DNA of 64,000 nucleotides, taken from contig OY760686.1 in assembly GCA_963663865.1 (NCBI GenBank), forward strand, positions 1,216,001 through 1,280,000, given 5' to 3'. Under the pieces are notes generated by a model. It had not been told where the DNA came from and searched no databases. It saw only the letters and a program-made list of their open reading frames with translations. The position numbers were made by a program, and so were the translations under genes. The stretch comes from Spirochaetota bacterium (GTDB lineage Bacteria; Spirochaetota; UBA4802; UBA5550). Shown one piece after another: positions 35,164 through 54,180 of this stretch (positions are counted from its first letter, which is position 1; each line of letters opens with the position of its first letter).

Positions 35164-36186
35164 ATGGCGACAAAAAAGAAAAAAACAGTCAAAGATGAAG
35201 CTGAACTCGAGGTTCGGAATCAGAAGCCGGACGATTCTGATTTTGATGATGGCGAAGGCGATTTTGCTGATGATGATGAAGCTGATGAAAGCGTCTATGA
35301 ATCCGAGGGCGTTCATGCCGATGAGGACATGTCCAGGTTAAAGGGCGGCCAGGGGTATACTGACTCTTCAATCTCGTGGTATCTTGATCAAATAAATCGC
35401 ATTCCGCTTCTTACACGGGAAGAGGAGGATTCGCTTGCGAGGGCGGCTCGAGAAGGCGATGAGAAGGCAAAGAACCAGCTCGTCAAGGCGAATCTGAGAT
35501 TTGTGGTTTCGATAGCTAAAAAGTATCAGACAAGCGGTATTTCACTCCTTGATATTATCAATGAGGGGAATATGGGGTTGATAAGAGCCGCGGAGAAATT
35601 TGATCCAGACAGGGGATTCCATTTTATTTCATACGCTGTCTGGTGGATCAGACAGGCCATAATTCTTGCTATTTCTCAAAAGGCCTCTCTGATAAGACTC
35701 CCTTTAAACAGAACTGCGGATATACAAAAAATTGAGAAGGTTCATAAAAAGCTTGAGAACAAGCTTGGGCGTGAACCCAGCGCTTCCGAGATAGCGGAAG
35801 AGCTTGATATGGATGACGAGGAAATAAACCACCTGAGAAATATCACTCAGGATTACATTTCTCTCGATTCAACCTATGGAGAGTCTGATGACACGACTAT
35901 CGTGAGCATGATTGTTGACCAGAGGGTTGATTCTCCGGATAAGAAGGTACTTGATGAGTCACTAAAGGAGTCGCTTAACTCGATTCTTGACACTCTGACG
36001 GAATCAGAGAGAAAGATTCTTGAGATGAGATTCGGGCTGAATGGATATGAACCTATGTCCCTTCAGCAAATTGGCGACAAGTTCAAGCTGTCAAAAGAAA
36101 GAATACGGCAGATTGAGAAAAAAGCGATAAGGCGCCTAAGGCATCCTTCGAGGAGTCAGAAACTAAAAAGCTATTTGCAGGATTGA
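35164..36186 (+). CDS. RpoD/RpoS-type sigma70 factor lacking region 1.1 (acidic N-terminus)
   Basis: [45 protein letters not shown]. Confidence 0.93.
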
Positions 36187-37250
36187 TGCTCATGAGATAT
36201 TTAATAGCCGGGCTAATAGCCGGATTTGTAATTAATCTTTTTGTTTTTAAACCAGCTGGCGGAGCGGCAGTATATCCTCTCTATTATAAATCAATTAACT
36301 CATTGGAGATCAGCAAGGCCGCCGGAGATGAAACATTCGGTTTAAGCGACAGGGGTTTGATCTATCGTGTTGATTTTTACGGAAAAGTTAAGAGTAAATT
36401 CGAAACGGGAAAGCGCCTTTCATCGCTTACTGCTGACGGACGTTTCGCTGTTTTATTTGAGAAAACCGGATCTGAGCTGGAGCTTGTGAGCACTTCCGGA
36501 GACAGGTTCTGGAAGATGAAATCCCTTGAATACCCATATATATCCAGCGGCGGAAAGCTGATTTTCCTGATGAACGGCGATCATAGCGCGGTGAGAATTG
36601 CCGATATAAACGGGAAAATAATCGGCCGGGAAACGATTTACGGACGAATCTGTACGGTGCTGTCCTTTTCTGAGCGTAACGATTTTGGAGTAATCGGCTT
36701 TTTTGACGGATCATATTACGTCGTCAATGAAAAGGGTGATATACTGAAACAGGGAGCCTGCCCGCTCGGGAACACGGTTAAAAGCGCCGCAATAAGCTGC
36801 ACCGGCAAATATGCGGCTGTTCACTGCGGAGACGAAAACAGCGATAGAATCATGATCGTTGATATTGATAATGACTCGATTGAAACCTTTGAGTTAAATG
36901 AATCGCATTACACTACATCACCTTTACAAATTGATGACAGCGGCAGAACCATTTTTCTGGGGCACAGGGCGGTCAGCGTATTGGATTCGGAGGCTGAGTT
37001 GCTTTTGAAATTGCCTGTTGCTGAAAGGCGTCCCGGACAGGCCTCTGTGCTTTCAGCAAAGGGCTGTCTGGCGGCGGGTTTTACGGAAATTAACGGCGGT
37101 TCAAGATGTGTAATTTTTACAGAGGATGGAGATGTTATTTTCAGCAGGGAATATCCAGGTGAGGCGTTTCTTAAGCTGATTTCATCTCCCGGAAAAATCA
37201 CTGTAAGGGGAGCAGGCAGCATTTTCTGTTACGCTGTTGAAGGGTTGTGA
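36183..37250 (+). CDS. Hypothetical exported beta-propeller-like protein
   Basis: N-terminal hydrophobic segment, repeated beta-strand motifs; coupled to the sigma gene. Confidence 0.65.
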
Positions 37251-37618
37251 CGATGGATAGAGCTTTACCACAGGCTGTAATGCTCTACGGCTATGACGAG
37301 GCTTCGGCTGAAGTAATTCTGAGCGCGTTTGAATTAATAACGGGTGGAAGGCCTGTCATGTTTAACGCGACCGGCAGAGAAGCCTCAACAGTCTCCGAGG
37401 TGCTTGAAGGAGGCGAGGGGAGTTTCAATACATGCACTGTGCCTTTTCTTATGTTTCTGGGATATGGTTCTGATGAAATACGCATGATTATGCAAAGGTT
37501 CCCATCCACCCCTGAAATTAAAAGACCGATATTCTGCGGGCTTACTTCCAACAACATTAGCTGGAAGATTGAGTATCTGCTCGAACACCTGATTGAGGAA
37601 AGGAGAGCTCATGCATGA
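37247..37618 (+). CDS. DUF3783 family protein
   Basis: RPIFCGLTSNNISWKIEYLLEHLIEER C-terminus. Confidence 0.75.
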   Translation: MTMDRALPQAVMLYGYDEASAEVILSAFELITGGRPVMFNATGREASTVSEVLEGGEGSFNTCTVPFLMFLGYGSDEIRMIMQRFPSTPEIKRPIFCGLTSNNISWKIEYLLEHLIEERRAHA

Positions 37619-38714
37619 GGAAATATTGAGTGAGTTTCGCAGGAAGAGTCGATCTGTAAATGCCGGCGGGCTGCTTATCGGTGGAGGTGCGCCCGTAAGT
37701 GTTCAAACTATGACGAACATTCCAATAGATGATGTCGGTGCGAACACAACAATGATTGCAAGACTTAAATCGCTTGGTGCGGAACTTGTAAGGCTCGCAG
37801 TCAGGAATGAGAATTCTGTTAAGGCCTTTCGAGAGATTAGAAAGGCGGTTGATATTCCAATATGTGCTGATATTCACTTTGATTACAGGCTCGCGATTAA
37901 GTCAATTGAGGCCGGAGCGGACAAGATACGCATCAATCCGGGTAATATCGGCAGCGAAACCCGGGTGAAAGAGGTTGTCCGCGCAGCCCGGGAGAGAGGA
38001 GTGCCAATCCGCATAGGAGTAAACGGCGGCTCAATTGACAGAAATCGTTTCAGCGGTCCAACGCCCGAGAACCTTGTCGAGTCGGCCCTTGAACATGTAA
38101 AAATTCTTGAAGATGCGGGCTTTTATGACATAGTAGTCTCGATAAAAACATCTGACCTTCGTGAAATGATAGAAGCGAACCGGATTTTTTCCGGAAGGAC
38201 TGAATATCCGATACATGTCGGCCTTACAGAAGCAGGATTCGGTCAGGCCTGTCTTGTATCAAGCTCAATCGCTATTGGACATCTACTGCTTCAGGGTATC
38301 GGAGACACAATAAGGGTATCAATGACTGGTGACCCGGCAGATGAGATTCTGGCCGGAATCGAAATACTTAACTCTCTCGGATTAAGAAAGGCTCCAGTAA
38401 GGATTATTTCGTGCCCGACATGCGGACGGACTGACCCATCGCTCGATCTGCTGATGCTGGCAAAGCGAATTGACAGGGAGTTTAACGAAAGGTTTGGCTC
38501 TATTTTGCGGGAAAGGGGGCAGACTTTGAAGGTTGCCGTTATGGGATGCGAGGTTAACGGTCCCGGTGAGGCATCTGACGCGGATTTGGGACTCGCGGGT
38601 GGGAGAAACGGCTCAGTGGTAGTTTTTTCTTCAGGCCGGAAAATAAAAAAAATCGACGTTGAAGAGGCAGTTGAATACCTTCTCTGTATGGCTGAAGAGT
38701 ATATTAAAGCTTAA
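37611..38714 (+). CDS. ispG: HMBPP synthase IspG
   Basis: VSVQTMTN, ADIHFDY, RINPGN, GDTIRVS, SCPTCGR, VMGCEVNGPGE. Confidence 0.97.
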   Translation: MHEEILSEFRRKSRSVNAGGLLIGGGAPVSVQTMTNIPIDDVGANTTMIARLKSLGAELVRLAVRNENSVKAFREIRKAVDIPICADIHFDYRLAIKSIEAGADKIRINPGNIGSETRVKEVVRAARERGVPIRIGVNGGSIDRNRFSGPTPENLVESALEHVKILEDAGFYDIVVSIKTSDLREMIEANRIFSGRTEYPIHVGLTEAGFGQACLVSSSIAIGHLLLQGIGDTIRVSMTGDPADEILAGIEILNSLGLRKAPVRIISCPTCGRTDPSLDLLMLAKRIDREFNERFGSILRERGQTLKVAVMGCEVNGPGEASDADLGLAGGRNGSVVVFSSGRKIKKIDVEEAVEYLLCMAEEYIKA

Positions 38715-45840: not shown

Positions 45841-46158
45841 ATGTGGATACTTGTAGAGAACCTTTCATCGGAATCTACTGAAGATGAAATTGCCGAGCTT
45901 TTTGATATTTACGGTGATGTTGACAGTATTACGGTGATAGCTGAAGAACCGGGTGAGGATTCCCCCGCTACGGCGCTTGTAGTGATGAGTTCGGCTGAGG
46001 ATGCAAGTTCAGCGATTGAGGCTCTTGATAAAACCGTGTTTATGGACAGAAGACTGAAAGTCCGCCGTGTCACGGCTAAAACAGCGATGAAGTTCAGGGG
46101 GGATGAGCTTTCAGCTCCAATGAGCTCGCATGGACGCGCAGGGCAGCCCGGGGTATAG
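45841..46158 (+). CDS. RRM (RNP-1) fold protein with degenerate RNP1/RNP2
   Basis: ILVENL..ESTEDEIAELFDIYGDV...AEDASSAIEALD....RRLKV; GAGGG RBS before ATG 45841. Confidence 0.8.
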   Translation: MWILVENLSSESTEDEIAELFDIYGDVDSITVIAEEPGEDSPATALVVMSSAEDASSAIEALDKTVFMDRRLKVRRVTAKTAMKFRGDELSAPMSSHGRAGQPGV

Positions 46159-46168
46159 GAGGGACGAA

Positions 46169-47542
46169 GTGGTAGAAAAGCTTATTGATCAGATCAGTTT
46201 ATTCCTTGAGACCCATAAACCCATCCCTGAAGAGATAATCCGGGCAAAGAACGTGAAGGTAGGGCTCCGGAATGAGGACGGTTCCGGGGTTCTCGCTGGA
46301 ATAACCACAAAAGGTATCGTTACAGGTTACAGGATTGAACAGGACGAAGCGGATCCTGACTTTAAAAAGAAAGTCCCGGTTGAGGGAAAGTTGACCTACT
46401 GCGGCTATGATGTGAAGGAAATCGTTGAGTCGCTCACCAGGGAGGAGCGTTTCGGATTCGAAGAGGTCGTTTTTTTGCTTCTGTCAGGCCGTCTGCCCGA
46501 GAAGTCAGAGCTCAAGATTTTTTCAAAAGAGCTGGTTAGGCGCAGAAGGCTGACAAGAGCAGAGAGAACTGTTGTTATGGAAGATGTGCCTGATTACAAT
46601 CAGATGTATGTTCTTCACAGCGCTGTATCCCATCTTGGAAGATGCGACGCTAGTTCAGATTCAGTTGAAATTATCGATGTCACCAAACAGTGCATTAACC
46701 TTATAGCTAAAATTCCAAACATCATTGCGAATGCCTGGAACGTAGTGGGTTTTTTTTCAACAGGTGACCTTAAGATTCACCGTCCGCGAAATGAGCTTTC
46801 AACTGCGGAAAACTTTCTGTACATGCTAAATGGAGTCCTTCCTACAAAGAGGGAGGCCCTGCTGTTTGACAAATTGCTTATTCTTCACGCTGAACACGGC
46901 GGAGGCAACAATTCAACATTTACTGTAAGAACTGTATCTTCAAGCGGGGCCAATACCTATATGGCGCTTGCTTCCGGAGTCGCATCTCTGAGCGGCTACC
47001 TTATGGGAGGTGCAGATGAATCTGTTGTTGATATGATTGATGAGCTCAGTTTCAGAGGCGGCAGTCCCTCCGACAGCGACATTAAGGAATATCTTCTGTC
47101 ATATATTGAACGCAAAAAAAGCCTGAGGCCTTCAGAGATGATGGGATTTGAACATGTGATACCGGGATTCGGTCACGCTGTTTACACAATTTCTGACCCG
47201 AGATCGGTTATTCTGCGCGAGATGGCTTCCTCTTACGCTGAGGAGAAGGGTTTGCTTGCAGAGCTGGATTTGTACATAAGGGTGGAGAAGATTGCAGTTC
47301 AGCTTTTGAGCGAAATGAACAGCGCTCCGGTATGTTCCAATGTTGACTTCTACTCAGGATTTCTCTACAGGCTTCTTGGGATACCCAAAGAGCTCTTTAC
47401 CCCAATCTTTGCTATGGCGAGAATGGTAGGCTGGTCTGCTCACAGAATTGAACAGCTCATTCAGGCAAAGATTATCAGGCCCGCGTATATATCATCGTCT
47501 GATTCAGAAAATGAGTTTGTACCGATGGCTGACAGGGGATAA
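46169..47542 (+). CDS. Citrate synthase family protein lacking the GPxHGGAN catalytic His
   Basis: GLRNEDGSGVL, GKLTYCGYD, HAEHGGGNNSTF, GFGHAVY..DPR, NVDFYSG, ARMVGW, IRP; GTG start after AGGAGG. Confidence 0.9.
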   Translation: MVEKLIDQISLFLETHKPIPEEIIRAKNVKVGLRNEDGSGVLAGITTKGIVTGYRIEQDEADPDFKKKVPVEGKLTYCGYDVKEIVESLTREERFGFEEVVFLLLSGRLPEKSELKIFSKELVRRRRLTRAERTVVMEDVPDYNQMYVLHSAVSHLGRCDASSDSVEIIDVTKQCINLIAKIPNIIANAWNVVGFFSTGDLKIHRPRNELSTAENFLYMLNGVLPTKREALLFDKLLILHAEHGGGNNSTFTVRTVSSSGANTYMALASGVASLSGYLMGGADESVVDMIDELSFRGGSPSDSDIKEYLLSYIERKKSLRPSEMMGFEHVIPGFGHAVYTISDPRSVILREMASSYAEEKGLLAELDLYIRVEKIAVQLLSEMNSAPVCSNVDFYSGFLYRLLGIPKELFTPIFAMARMVGWSAHRIEQLIQAKIIRPAYISSSDSENEFVPMADRG

Positions 47543-47543
47543 G

Positions 47544-48335
47544 ATGAATCAGGACCAGGTTGTTCAGAATTTACTGCTTCTTGACAGTAAAGTTCCGGAT
47601 TTTATAGTAACGTTTACAGGAAAAAACAGCGACAGGGTTGACGGGCTCTATAAGCCCGATAGCTGTGAAATCATCATCCACAATAAAAACCATGAAACCG
47701 ACAATGCGCTCATGTACACCGCCATTCATGAATTCGCTCATCATGTTCAGTTTACCGGCTCAGCGAAGCCGGTAACATCACGGGCGCATACGACTGATTT
47801 CTGGAATACATTTCACAGGCTTCTCGAAAGGGCTGAAGAGCTCGGGATTTACACCAATGTGTTCGAGAGCGAAGAGGAGTTTATCGTTTTGACGAAGCAG
47901 ATAAAACAGAATTATCTGCACGAGAACGGCCGGATGATGAAAGAGATGGCCTCCATACTCTTTAAAGCATTTGAGCTCTGTTCCCGCTTCCATGTTTCAT
48001 TCGATGACTACATGGACCGGGTTATCGGACTTCACAGGTCAACAGCAAGAACAATTTTGAAGATGCAGACAATGGATATTGACCCGAGCATTGGATTCGA
48101 GAACATGAAGGTGGTGGCATCTGTTAAAGACGAGACAGTAAGGGCTGAAGTTGAAAAGGCATTTTTGAAGGGCAGCAGCCCGGATATGGTGAAGGCGATG
48201 CTTGCTGGCAGAAAACCTGAGAACAGATTGGACTACCTTCTGGAAGAAAAGGAGCGGCTTGAAAAAATGCTTGAATCAGTCACGGTCAGACTGGCAAAAG
48301 TTGAGCGAGAGATAGAAAATGAAAAATACGTGTGA
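47544..48335 (+). CDS. SprT/WLM-like zinc metalloprotease with helical C-terminal domain
   Basis: TAIHEFAHH...RAHTTDFW; ATG one nt after the upstream stop. Confidence 0.75.
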   Translation: MNQDQVVQNLLLLDSKVPDFIVTFTGKNSDRVDGLYKPDSCEIIIHNKNHETDNALMYTAIHEFAHHVQFTGSAKPVTSRAHTTDFWNTFHRLLERAEELGIYTNVFESEEEFIVLTKQIKQNYLHENGRMMKEMASILFKAFELCSRFHVSFDDYMDRVIGLHRSTARTILKMQTMDIDPSIGFENMKVVASVKDETVRAEVEKAFLKGSSPDMVKAMLAGRKPENRLDYLLEEKERLEKMLESVTVRLAKVEREIENEKYV

Positions 48336-50774: not shown

Positions 50775-52091
50775 TTGTTTTATTCTTCAGATATTACTTT
50801 TTGTATTATATCGCTTGGATGTTCCAAGAACCTTGTAGATTCTGAAAAGGTCAACGGACAGATGATATCAGCCGGTTTTGTACCGGCTGATTCTGTTCAG
50901 GACGCGGCAATTATCATTCTTAATACCTGCGGCTTCATTCTCCCCGCCAAAGAAGAATCCATTGAAGAGATATTCAACGCTGTAAGTGAAAGGGACCGTG
51001 AGCCTCTTGCTGCCGGCGGCTTCAGGAGGAGGGTGGTTGCCATGGGGTGCCTTACACAGCGCTATCTAAGCGATATTCGCAGCGATATGCCGGAAATAGA
51101 CTATGTTATCGGCATTCCTGATGATTCCTTCGTGCAGAAACTCGCTGATGAGTTATCAATCAGTATTTTAAACAACCCGCAATCCGTTCAGGTGCCTCTC
51201 AATAAGGGGCTCTATTATATGAATATTAAAATATCAGAGGGATGCTCAAACAACTGCAGCTACTGTGCCATACCGCTTATCAGAGGGCCCCACAGATCAT
51301 TCTCTACCGAAAGCATTCTCAATGATGTGAGAAACGCGGCTGAAAGAGGGGCGAAGGAAGTGATTCTGATGGGGCAGGACACTGCAGCATACAGCTTTTC
51401 AGGTGTTCGTTTGCCCGAACTGATTGAAAAGGCTGCTTTAGTTGACGGGATAGAGTGGATCAGGCTGCTGTACTGTCACCCTGATCACCTCTCGGACGAT
51501 ATTATTTCCGCAATCGCTGATGTTGATAAGGTGGTCCGTTATATTGATCTTCCATTTCAGCACGCTAATGAACGGATATTGAAGTCAATGGGGCGAAGTG
51601 GGAGCAGTCGCAGCTATGCTGAGCTTGTTCAGCGAATTCGGGATAGAGTTCCCGGAATAGCCCTCAGGTCAACTTTTATGGTTGGATATCCCGGAGAAAC
51701 CGAGGATGAATTTGCCGAATTATTCGACTTTGTTTCGCAAACAGAGCTTGACAGAGTGGGAGTGTTTCAGTATTCGCCTGAAGAAGGAACAAGGGCTGCT
51801 TCAATGAGGCCTTACACGGAGAAGCGGATTGCCGCAAAAAGGCATAGCAGGCTTATGAAGCTTCAGAAAGCCATGTCTGAAGAGAAGCTTCATAGGCTGG
51901 TTGGACAGAAAGTAAATGTCCTTGTCGAAGGCCGGACGGAATCGGGCCTCTTTTTCGGACGGACAGAGTTTGACGCGCCTGATGTGGACGGCTTGTTTTA
52001 TCTTGAGGCCGAAGGCTCTCTTGAAGGGAAGATTCTTACTGCCCTGGTCACTGGTTCCACAGAGTATGATTTAATAGGAGTTATCTCTTGA
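50775..52091 (+). CDS. rimO: Ribosomal protein S12 methylthiotransferase RimO
   Basis: SLGCSKNLVDSE, NTCGFI, KISEGCSNNCSYCAIP, DAPDVDG TRAM. Confidence 0.95.
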   Translation: MFYSSDITFCIISLGCSKNLVDSEKVNGQMISAGFVPADSVQDAAIIILNTCGFILPAKEESIEEIFNAVSERDREPLAAGGFRRRVVAMGCLTQRYLSDIRSDMPEIDYVIGIPDDSFVQKLADELSISILNNPQSVQVPLNKGLYYMNIKISEGCSNNCSYCAIPLIRGPHRSFSTESILNDVRNAAERGAKEVILMGQDTAAYSFSGVRLPELIEKAALVDGIEWIRLLYCHPDHLSDDIISAIADVDKVVRYIDLPFQHANERILKSMGRSGSSRSYAELVQRIRDRVPGIALRSTFMVGYPGETEDEFAELFDFVSQTELDRVGVFQYSPEEGTRAASMRPYTEKRIAAKRHSRLMKLQKAMSEEKLHRLVGQKVNVLVEGRTESGLFFGRTEFDAPDVDGLFYLEAEGSLEGKILTALVTGSTEYDLIGVIS

Positions 52092-52705
52092 ATATCCCGG
52101 TTTTTAAACTGAACGTGCCTAACCTGATCTCAATGGTTAGAGTTGTGCTGATTCCCGTCTTCATATACTTTTTGTCTCAAGGGACAATTCATGGATGGAA
52201 GTGGGCAATATTTATATTTATCTTTGCTTCCTTTACCGACCTGCTTGACGGCTGGAGCGCCAGGAAGTTGAGGCAGGTTTCTGAGTTCGGAGAATTCATC
52301 GACCCGCTGGCTGACAAGTTTTTAGTTCTTTCAGCGCTCATTGCACTCATGGTCGTTGATCCTTATCTTGAGGTCTTTGATTTTTGGATGATCGTTGTTA
52401 TCGCTGGAAGGGACATCTTGATTACCGTCATGCGCTGGCTGGCAATAAAGCAGAACAGGCCTCTCAGAACGAGCCGTTTTGGAAAAGTGAAAACTGCGTT
52501 TCAGATGGCATCAATTGTTCTGATAATAATGGTCTACATGGCAAAGAAGAGCCGTTTTTTCGAGGTGCATGAATCTCTTCCATACTGGATAATGTTTTCG
52601 GTGACATTGTTGACCGCTTTCTCCGGATTAAGGTATCTGTTAACAAACTGGAGATTGTTTTTCCCTTCAAAAACAGCTGAGAGGTCGCCTGTAGATGAGA
52701 ATTAA
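52088..52705 (+). CDS. pgsA: CDP-diacylglycerol-glycerol-3-phosphate 3-phosphatidyltransferase
   Basis: NVPN, TDLLDGWSAR, FGEFIDPLADK, GKVKTAFQM. Confidence 0.93.
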   Translation: MNIPVFKLNVPNLISMVRVVLIPVFIYFLSQGTIHGWKWAIFIFIFASFTDLLDGWSARKLRQVSEFGEFIDPLADKFLVLSALIALMVVDPYLEVFDFWMIVVIAGRDILITVMRWLAIKQNRPLRTSRFGKVKTAFQMASIVLIIMVYMAKKSRFFEVHESLPYWIMFSVTLLTAFSGLRYLLTNWRLFFPSKTAERSPVDEN

Positions 52706-53177
52706 GGAGTTCTTTTTTACCGCATTTTACAGCGGATACATTCCACGGGCCCCGGGAACGGCCGGCAGTGTAGTCGGTCTTGCTCTTTTCTGGGGAATGT
52801 ATTTGATATTCGGAGAATGGCATTCAGAGGCAGCTCTTGCTGTAGTTCTGGTTTCTGCCTATCCCCTTGTCAGGCTCTGTACGGCCGCAGAGAATTATTA
52901 CGGCAAAACTGATCCGCAATGCGTTGTTATTGATGAAACAGCCGGAATGTGGATAACCCTTCTCTTTGTTCCGCTTAACTGGAAGACGTCACTGCTGGGT
53001 TTCGTACTTTTTCGTCTTTTTGATATCGTAAAGCCATTTCCAGCCGACCGATTTCAGGAGCTTAAAGGCGGGCTGGGAATAATGGCTGACGACTGGGTGG
53101 CTGGAGTGTATGCCTGTATTGTACTTCATCTGATATACCAGGCTCAGTTTCTCGCAGGAATTACTATTCTGATTTGA
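52695..53177 (+). CDS. pgpA: Phosphatidylglycerophosphatase A
   Basis: APGTAGS, DPQCVVIDE, FRLFDIVKP, GIMADD. Confidence 0.93.
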   Translation: MRIKEFFFTAFYSGYIPRAPGTAGSVVGLALFWGMYLIFGEWHSEAALAVVLVSAYPLVRLCTAAENYYGKTDPQCVVIDETAGMWITLLFVPLNWKTSLLGFVLFRLFDIVKPFPADRFQELKGGLGIMADDWVAGVYACIVLHLIYQAQFLAGITILI

Positions 53178-53218
53178 TATTAGCGGATGGATTATTTTTG
53201 TCCGTACAGGGAGGCGGA

Positions 53219-53692
53219 ATGAAGCGCATTCTCAAACAAATCCCGATAATCAGTCTTCTCGTTCTAATCACGGGTGCAATCGTCTTTGCGCAGGAATCGA
53301 ATATCTTCAGCCATTACGATGGTAGCAGGTCATCAGAGTTTGATTTCATTCTGAGCGATATCGCTGATATAGAGAAAGATGCGCGAACAGCTGTTTTGTC
53401 TGGAAATGCCCTGGCTTCTACAGCTCTTTCGGAGATATCCGAGCTGAATGCTCTCATTCATGCAGCGGCCGATTCACGGGACAGCGAATCAGCTGAACAG
53501 ATAATGACTTATGTCAGGGTCAGGGCAGCTGAAATAAAGGCAGAACTTGAGAAACAACAGAGGCAACATCGTATTTCGCGCAGTATCTATTCCGCCGTAT
53601 CAATGATAATGATAATAATGCTCATGACTCTGATCGCTTACACCGCATACGCAAATTTCCAAAAAAATCAGAGAAAGGGGATGCTCGAATGA
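53219..53692 (+). CDS. Hypothetical protein (signal peptide, C-terminal TM)
   Basis: GGAGG RBS before ATG 53219; hydrophobic ends. Confidence 0.65.
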   Translation: MKRILKQIPIISLLVLITGAIVFAQESNIFSHYDGSRSSEFDFILSDIADIEKDARTAVLSGNALASTALSEISELNALIHAAADSRDSESAEQIMTYVRVRAAEIKAELEKQQRQHRISRSIYSAVSMIMIIMLMTLIAYTAYANFQKNQRKGMLE

Positions 53693-54180
53693 GGGAATAC
53701 CTTTATAACACGGATAAAATTAAATATGCGAGGGGGGATAAGCCGGATGTCGAATGTATCCTCTGTGCGATAAGAGACAGGTCGCCAGAGGTTTCGAGTC
53801 TTGAGGTGTTCAGGGATGACGATTTTATCGTATCGGTAAACCTGTACCCTTTTAATCCAGGTCATCTGATGGTTTTCCCTCAGAGGCATATTGAAGCCTA
53901 CGATGAATTTTGCGACAGAGAAGCTCTTTCTCTGCACCACCTCGTGTCAGCATCCGTTAAGCTGATTCGTGAGGAGTTCGAGCCTTCAGGTTTCAACATC
54001 GGCTACAATATTGGCCAGGGCAGCGGAGCCAGTATACCGCACATTCACCAGCATATTGTACCGAGATACGGCAATGAGCTGGGGTACCTTGACGTCATAT
54101 CCGGTACAAGGGTGATTGTAATGGATCCGGTTGAGGTTCGTGAGAGGCTCAGGAAGCGCTTTGCATGTTATTTCAACTGA
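53689..54180 (+). CDS. HIT family hydrolase
   Basis: CILC, NLYPFNPGHLMV, GFNIGYN, HIHQHIVPR. Confidence 0.92.
   Translation: MREYLYNTDKIKYARGDKPDVECILCAIRDRSPEVSSLEVFRDDDFIVSVNLYPFNPGHLMVFPQRHIEAYDEFCDREALSLHHLVSASVKLIREEFEPSGFNIGYNIGQGSGASIPHIHQHIVPRYGNELGYLDVISGTRVIVMDPVEVRERLRKRFACYFN

Follow-up and report, generated by a model that had tools for sequence, protein, structure and literature searches.

Within a 64,000-nucleotide stretch of DNA from a Spirochaetota bacterium (GenBank assembly GCA_963663865.1, contig OY760686.1, positions 1,216,001 to 1,280,000 of the forward strand; hereafter the window) lies a gene for a citrate synthase paralogue, CS2 (46169..47542, + strand), in which methionine takes the place of the catalytic histidine that stabilizes the acetyl-coenzyme A (acetyl-CoA) enolate. 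The substitution is genuine, it is constant across five lineages including this one, and the gene is maintained by purifying selection alongside a canonical citrate synthase, CS1. As judged from its sequence, CS2 probably no longer makes citrate efficiently, and the chances are about even that it is a selected paralogue which binds oxaloacetate or citrate without useful normal turnover, acting as a regulator, a sensor or a partner subunit.

The product of CS2 (P0001, 457 residues, including SLSGYLMGGADESV) belongs to the citrate synthase superfamily and, within it, to the PRK14032 type, as indicated by its translation, its profile matches and its placement in the tree. It matches the Pfam family Citrate_synt (PF00285) with an E-value of 2.8e-101 and 339.6 bits over profile positions 19–357 of 357, and scores 437.8 bits on NCBIfam NF010635 (PRK14032), barely over the 426-bit cut-off; P0003, another protein of the Met-bearing clade, lies under that cut-off at 420.5 bits. 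Translation from the GTG at 46169 agrees with the N-termini of homologues, and a Shine–Dalgarno-like AGGAGGG (46157..46163, + strand) stands five nucleotides ahead of this start. An alternative ATG start at 46130 was rejected, since it would run into the upstream gene.

At the catalytic site, an earlier note made from the sequence alone had read GYLMGGAD where the family has GPxHGGAN, with the methionine encoded by ATG at 47003..47005 (+ strand). A pattern match and HMMER alignments bear this out, with Met279 standing opposite the His of GPRHGGAN in 1iom and of GPLHGGAN in 8bei and 8an1, a position that corresponds to H274 of pig citrate synthase. P0001 therefore lacks the enolate-stabilizing His that is expected of a functional citrate (Si)-synthase. 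Four residues further on, Asp283 (47015..47017, + strand) replaces the Asn of HGGAN, which is present in 97 % of canonical relatives; among 12 CS2 proteins this position is D, T, G, E or N. The same note had described the second His, the Asp, the HAEH motif and the oxaloacetate-site Arg residues as intact, and all are found in the translation. The second catalytic His is His336 in PGFGH (47174..47176, + strand) and the catalytic base is Asp393 in SNVDF (codon GAC, 47345..47347, + strand), while the oxaloacetate site is represented by LHAEHGGGNNS (H240, H243 and N247), SDPR (R345), FAMARMVGW (F414 and R418) and IIRP (R437). The intact state of this site points to a continued ability to bind oxaloacetate or citrate.

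Several lines of evidence establish that the methionine is real. ATG has no base in common with either His codon, CAT or CAC, and an error at one base, already thought unlikely in the earlier note, cannot account for it. Another assembly encodes a protein (P0002) that is 99 % identical to P0001, with 5 of 457 residues different and the Met retained. Public runs numbering 14 were listed; 11 rows, from five studies, contain the compared stretch around the gene in whole or in part, none of them recorded as RNA, and four runs were aligned with it. Run X3, possibly the window's own source, spans it identically; X7 covers 46981–47236 without a difference; and X8, a separate strain, spans it with 54 differences over 2701 bases. 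Among the differences listed for these three runs, none falls at 47003–47005, and among the 21 listed for X8 inside CS2, 18 are synonymous and three nonsynonymous.

The substitution also has a phylogenetic history. A first search returned 121 proteins with His (115), Met (four), Arg (one) or Tyr (one) in the catalytic column; a profile search then added a partial Met-bearing protein, P0122, and a DNA pattern search added the metagenome locus L075, with the motif GYLMCGAGE. The pattern used, MA...G[IV]ASLSG[YH]xM, has three matches in metagenome contigs and none in genome contigs, and no relative of the L075 protein above 52 % identity was found in genome contigs. Five lineages are thus known to carry Met, namely the window species (P0001 and P0002), P0003, P0004, P0122 and L075, and in all of them Met is invariant while the positions one, two and four residues after it vary (GGAD, SRAT, GKAT, GGAS and CGAG). 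The four full-length members share 56–86 % identity. All 122 genomes available for the order, and a sample of 401 genomes from the phylum, yielded no further Met-type copy. A careful tree of 34 rows supports the Met clade at 100/100 and nests it within a clade of ten rows (100/97), the non-Met members of which have degenerate motifs (HTGSD, HSGAD, HFGSD, RHGSN and YYGSD). Two related genomes contribute second copies of the same kind: that of G020 keeps His (HFGSDQ), and that of G018 has Leu at the catalytic position (GHFLSGSEQ). Once these are added, the CS2 clade comprises 12 rows with a Shimodaira–Hasegawa-like approximate likelihood ratio (SH-aLRT) support of 99 by a quick method, and the catalytic position has been altered at least four times, to Met, Leu, Arg and Tyr; the His-keeping members are P0005, P0017, P0024, P0111 and the G020 copy. 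Outside the clade, by comparison, the column is His in 135/135 canonical relatives; of 80 further family loci, from Deltaproteobacteria, Nitrospiraceae, Bacteroidales and other groups, 78 have it as well and the remaining two were not parsed. Against such constancy, chance is a poor explanation of the change.

Individual members of the CS2 clade show other peculiarities. The Leu-type gene of G018, which is from a related genus (L164, G018:C140:1-1248), represents a fourth independent replacement and is truncated by the start of its contig. The CS2 of genome G024 (L072, 6816–8174) keeps the first His and reads PGFDH instead of PGFGH, so that the second catalytic His is preceded by Asp at a position that is Gly in each of the 135 canonical proteins. 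In the L075 protein (1068–2426), HAEHCGGNNS, with Gly changed to Cys after HAEH, and MCGAG together bring two new cysteines near the active site. A very hydrophobic N-terminal extension of about 47 residues is conserved among three low-GC (guanine plus cytosine) Met-type proteins (L076 and L077; also P0003, P0004 and P0122), while neither the window protein nor L075 has it; because it is conserved at the protein level, this extension may be genuinely translated and could be a membrane anchor.

CS2 is constrained by purifying selection, though less tightly than CS1. Between Met lineages, the ratio of nonsynonymous to synonymous divergence (dN/dS, Nei–Gojobori) is 0.156 (dS 0.55), 0.156 (dS 1.05) and 0.188 (dS 0.93), as against 0.03–0.08 in canonical controls, a range drawn from four pairs out of 12 since dS was saturated in the other eight, and the CS2 branches of the tree are longer than the canonical ones. 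The refuting case set out in the earlier note, His in every close orthologue together with relaxed selection on this copy, is not the one observed. P0001 retains 119 of the 123 columns that are conserved at 97 % or more in the canonical set, its four changes being N142D, G198T, H279M and N283D. Across CS2, the departures from the canonical consensus adjoin the catalytic motifs: they fall at G280 and N283 of HGGAN, at Y332, four residues before His336, at A346, directly after Arg345, and at G397, four residues after Asp393, with two more, at N189 and Q432, among the 12 proteins. The window protein has K235, P332 and S346 at signature positions. Lys235 (46871..46873, + strand), five positions before HAEH, is Lys in 12/12 CS2 proteins and Ile, Ala or Leu in canonical ones. 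Specific to the Met clade are a change from MMK to MID after the catalytic motif and a three-residue insertion, Phe-Glu-His at 327–329 (47147..47155, + strand), just before IPGFGH, where 135/135 canonical sequences have a gap; Glu328 of this insertion is invariant in the four full-length Met-clade sequences. Taken together, the pattern of substitutions looks like a directed remodelling that affected the acetyl-CoA half of the active site and spared the oxaloacetate half.

The genome, a single contig of 3.16 Mb that is 98 % complete, has two Citrate_synt genes. CS1 (P0020, 443 residues) reads GHLHGGANE, scores 528.2 bits on NF010635 and is 55–57 % identical to CS2. Genes for an aconitate hydratase (917 bits on NF005558) and an NADP-isocitrate dehydrogenase (670 bits on TIGR00183) are present too, so the oxidative branch to 2-oxoglutarate is complete via CS1. 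A search of the whole genome (G000) for Ligase_CoA gave no match, hence no succinyl-CoA synthetase; with citrate synthase, aconitase and NADP-isocitrate dehydrogenase present, this suggests that the cycle consists of the oxidative branch only and serves for making 2-oxoglutarate. The CS1 neighbourhood is shared with G024 and comprises pgi, a gene for 317 residues, the citrate synthase gene and, further downstream, a gene for 152 or 158 residues whose product is presumably CoA-binding. A canonical copy accompanies CS2 in all four CS2-bearing genomes of the family (G000, G018, G020 and G024).

Compared with the canonical PRK14032 enzymes, which include CS1 and those of Bacteroides, Prevotella and Alistipes, CS2 is alike in length class, in domain layout, in a 70-residue N-terminal part and in its oxaloacetate-binding residues, second His and Asp base. 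It differs from them by Met for His, Asp for Asn, the signature positions and the insertion before GFGH, as well as by longer branches, a higher dN/dS and a genomic context without metabolic neighbours.

These observations are the basis for favouring a paralogue that binds its ligands without useful turnover. The active site of CS2 appears to have been rebuilt around the site of acetyl-CoA enolization in a gene that is live and under selection. Without the enolate-polarizing His, normal Claisen condensation would be slower by orders of magnitude, and citrate for the aconitase and isocitrate dehydrogenase branch would be supplied by CS1. CS2 would still fold, dimerize and bind oxaloacetate or citrate, perhaps with a CoA thioester, and so could regulate or sense by binding metabolites, or else pair with CS1 as a partner subunit. 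Met, Leu, Arg, Tyr and His are all tolerated at the catalytic position of a clade that purifying selection maintains alongside a canonical enzyme, so what is selected in CS2 is probably a function independent of normal condensation. The ligand-binding pseudoenzyme put forward in the earlier note has thus gained ground, from the paralogue beside CS1, at least four replacements of the His, 119/123 conserved columns and purifying selection, while the lyase offered there as its alternative has lost it (see below). With one catalytic residue lost, the fold intact, purifying selection evident and an active paralogue present, CS2 has the features of a pseudoenzyme, loss of activity being the predicted one among them.

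Laboratory replacement of the enolate-stabilizing His is reported to cost about three orders of magnitude in rate, and a large loss of condensation is to be expected from engineered mutants such as pig H274G/R and Escherichia coli H264A. Those mutants concern the same position as Met279, but they were made in the laboratory; the CS2 variant is a natural one that selection has maintained. In the available part of PMC4601594, the His that is replaced in CS2 is described as donating a hydrogen bond that polarizes the acetyl-CoA enolate, and a Thermoplasma H222Q mutant is given together with the role of His222. A precedent for a non-catalytic role in this family comes from Caulobacter crescentus where, according to the available portion of Berge et al. 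2020 (PMC7083601), catalytically dead CitA retains its control of the cell cycle and the paralogue CitC is unable to complement gltA; CitA shows that a citrate synthase can fill a role of this kind without catalysis. Like CS2, CitA and CitC are bacterial citrate synthase paralogues that coexist with a working enzyme. CitA differs in being naturally active, in having been inactivated experimentally at the other, oxaloacetate-binding His, and in lying on a separate branch of the family, and the same portion of that paper describes no natural loss of the enolate-stabilizing His (PMC7083601). A literature search for a natural bacterial citrate synthase paralogue without this His found none, most subscription journals lying outside the search.

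Three features weigh against a purely binding role. Asp393, His336 and nearly all family-invariant residues are kept and are not obviously needed for binding alone, which hints that some chemistry survives. Met is invariant in its five lineages, with dS of 0.55–1.05 between three of them, although Leu, Ile and Val are one base change away, and this invariance suggests that Met has a role of its own rather than marking mere loss. Lys235, fixed throughout CS2, could moreover be a replacement catalytic group. There is also a more specific version of the favoured account, distinctly improbable in its detail, in which CS2 would be a new sensor subfamily whose rebuilt pocket (Met or Leu279, and Lys235) binds oxaloacetate or citrate, perhaps with acetyl-CoA, and signals carbon status; its output would pass to CS1 via mixed dimers, or act post-transcriptionally via the RNA recognition motif (RRM) protein encoded upstream.

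The strongest competitor, a minority possibility that deserves to be taken seriously, is that CS2 is a neofunctionalized enzyme whose pocket, with Met279, Asp283, Lys235 and the insertion before GFGH, fits another reaction. That reaction might be the joining of oxaloacetate to an acyl-CoA other than the usual one, or thioester hydrolysis or a lyase reaction on a citryl-CoA-like compound. Such an enzyme would account well for the retention of Asp393, His336, the oxaloacetate site and nearly all invariant positions, for a Met that stays constant while its neighbours vary, for the newly fixed Lys235 and Glu328, and for purifying selection on the gene. One new catalytic role is hard to reconcile, however, with Met, Leu, Arg, Tyr or His at the key position within a single clade, and the adjoining genes, for an RRM protein and a putative metallopeptidase-like protein, include none of metabolism.

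The lyase variant of this idea, which the earlier note had raised as convergence on a citryl-CoA-type lyase, was examined further and is not supported, whether by partner genes, length or score. Citryl-CoA synthetase and ATP-citrate lyase both need Ligase_CoA. The 98 %-complete genome yielded no match to Ligase_CoA (PF00549), CoA_transf_3 (PF02515) or CoA_trans (PF01144), and hence none of the citrate CoA-ligases or transferases that the earlier note had proposed to look for; CitF of citrate lyase (PF04223) likewise gave no match, and HpcH/CitE only a 23.5-bit fragment under the cut-off. P0001 does match lyase models at E-values of 1e-24 to 1e-5, but the best of them, NF004864, gives 84.3 bits against a cut-off of 261. 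The citryl-CoA lyase module of ATP-citrate lyase belongs to the same fold family as CS2, yet has only about 260 residues, is without the N-terminal half and works with citryl-CoA synthetase, whereas CS2 is full-length and its genome is without a match to that synthetase. Furthermore, the authentic, solved citryl-CoA lyase of Hydrogenobacter (6hxp) and a lyase-like protein of a spirochaete keep the His, so a hydrophobic residue at this position does not by itself mark a lyase. In ATP-citrate lyase, the residue at the catalytic-His position is Phe according to the earlier note (GDRFGGA); two Nitrospiraceae genomes reached in a search for that enzyme contained ordinary citrate synthases only. The catalytic role of the ATP-citrate lyase module is in any case disputed, as far as the accessible text of PMC10115795 and the titles in the reference list of PMC11365397 indicate, one group holding the module to be allosteric and not catalytic (PMC10115795). 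A role for CS2 as the 2-methylcitrate synthase PrpC is likewise not supported, with 270.8 bits on TIGR01800 against a cut-off of 421.3 and no match in the genome to PrpD of the methylcitrate cycle.

It is unlikely that CS2 is instead a working citrate synthase, i.e. a slow or specialized isozyme in which water or another residue stabilizes the enolate. Its score just above the NF010635 cut-off and the presence of every other catalytic residue are what such an isozyme would show, and the His-keeping members of the clade might still be active. Speaking against it are the His invariant in 135/135 canonical relatives and seen in 78 of 80 loci from other phyla, the established enolate-polarizing role of that residue (PMC4601594, in the part available), the Arg, Tyr and Leu tolerated at the catalytic position in sister lineages, and the canonical enzyme in 4/4 CS2-bearing genomes examined. 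Finally, sequencing error and decay into a pseudogene are, in practice, ruled out by the three-base distance of ATG from CAY, the Met in a second assembly and in runs of other studies, an open reading frame, five Met lineages, dN/dS of 0.16–0.19 and the predominance of synonymous changes among the within-species differences listed.

The favoured interpretation, that CS2 binds its ligands without useful turnover, has consequences for annotation as well as for enzymology. Since CS2 is over the NCBIfam cut-off, pipelines will label it 'citrate synthase', and metabolic reconstructions would count two citrate synthases where probably one works. A natural, selected family that is without the enolate-stabilizing His and has kept the rest of the site is a ready-made test of the contribution of that His, and from CS2 one could learn either that the citrate synthase fold has a new use in regulation or that its catalytic groups can be arranged in another way. 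The reach of these implications is limited by the small size of the clade, which to date is confined to spirochaete-like genomes and contigs from metagenomes.

CS2 is flanked by a gene for a 105-residue RRM RNA-binding protein upstream (45841..46158, + strand; PF00076, E-value 6e-13, with NCBIfam matches) and by a gene for a 263-residue protein with a HEFAHH motif downstream (47544..48335, + strand). The latter protein has a coiled-coil-like C-terminal part; its matches to the putative metallopeptidase families DUF6782 and SprT-like are sub-threshold only, and there is no NCBIfam match. Ten nucleotides separate the RRM stop codon from the CS2 start and one separates the CS2 stop codon from the ATG of the HEFAHH gene; with gaps so short and no terminator-like site on the + strand between the three genes, they probably form one transcript.

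Elements of this arrangement recur in relatives. In G024, as in the window, CS2 is immediately preceded by an RRM gene (L072, 6327–6650); the G024 copy of CS2 keeps His, and a 60 %-identical homologue of the HEFAHH protein is encoded 2.4 kb downstream of it. In G020, CS2 adjoins a block of HIT, PgpA, PgsA and RimO-like genes, named from their translations, that matches 50775–54180 of the window. By virtue of the neighbour genes common to the window, G024 and G020, the four CS2 genes of the window's family are positional relatives. Elsewhere, L075 has its Met-type CS2 followed directly by a HEFAHH gene and then a DUF362 gene, and the RRM gene upstream of CS2 is absent, a KilA-N protein being encoded there in L075 and a sigma-70-like protein in L076 and L077. 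A functional link between CS2 and the HEFAHH protein was considered and rejected: of 41 related genomes, 30 have a HEFAHH homologue, some of them without any CS2 found, and the neighbours of these homologues vary, so the adjacency is read as shared synteny and not as joint function. In one further genome (G016; L080, G016:C17), the HEFAHH gene lies between homologues of two elements of the window, a sigma-70/355-residue pair (35164–37250) and an IspG-like gene (37593–38714), which indicates that the region has been rearranged within the family.

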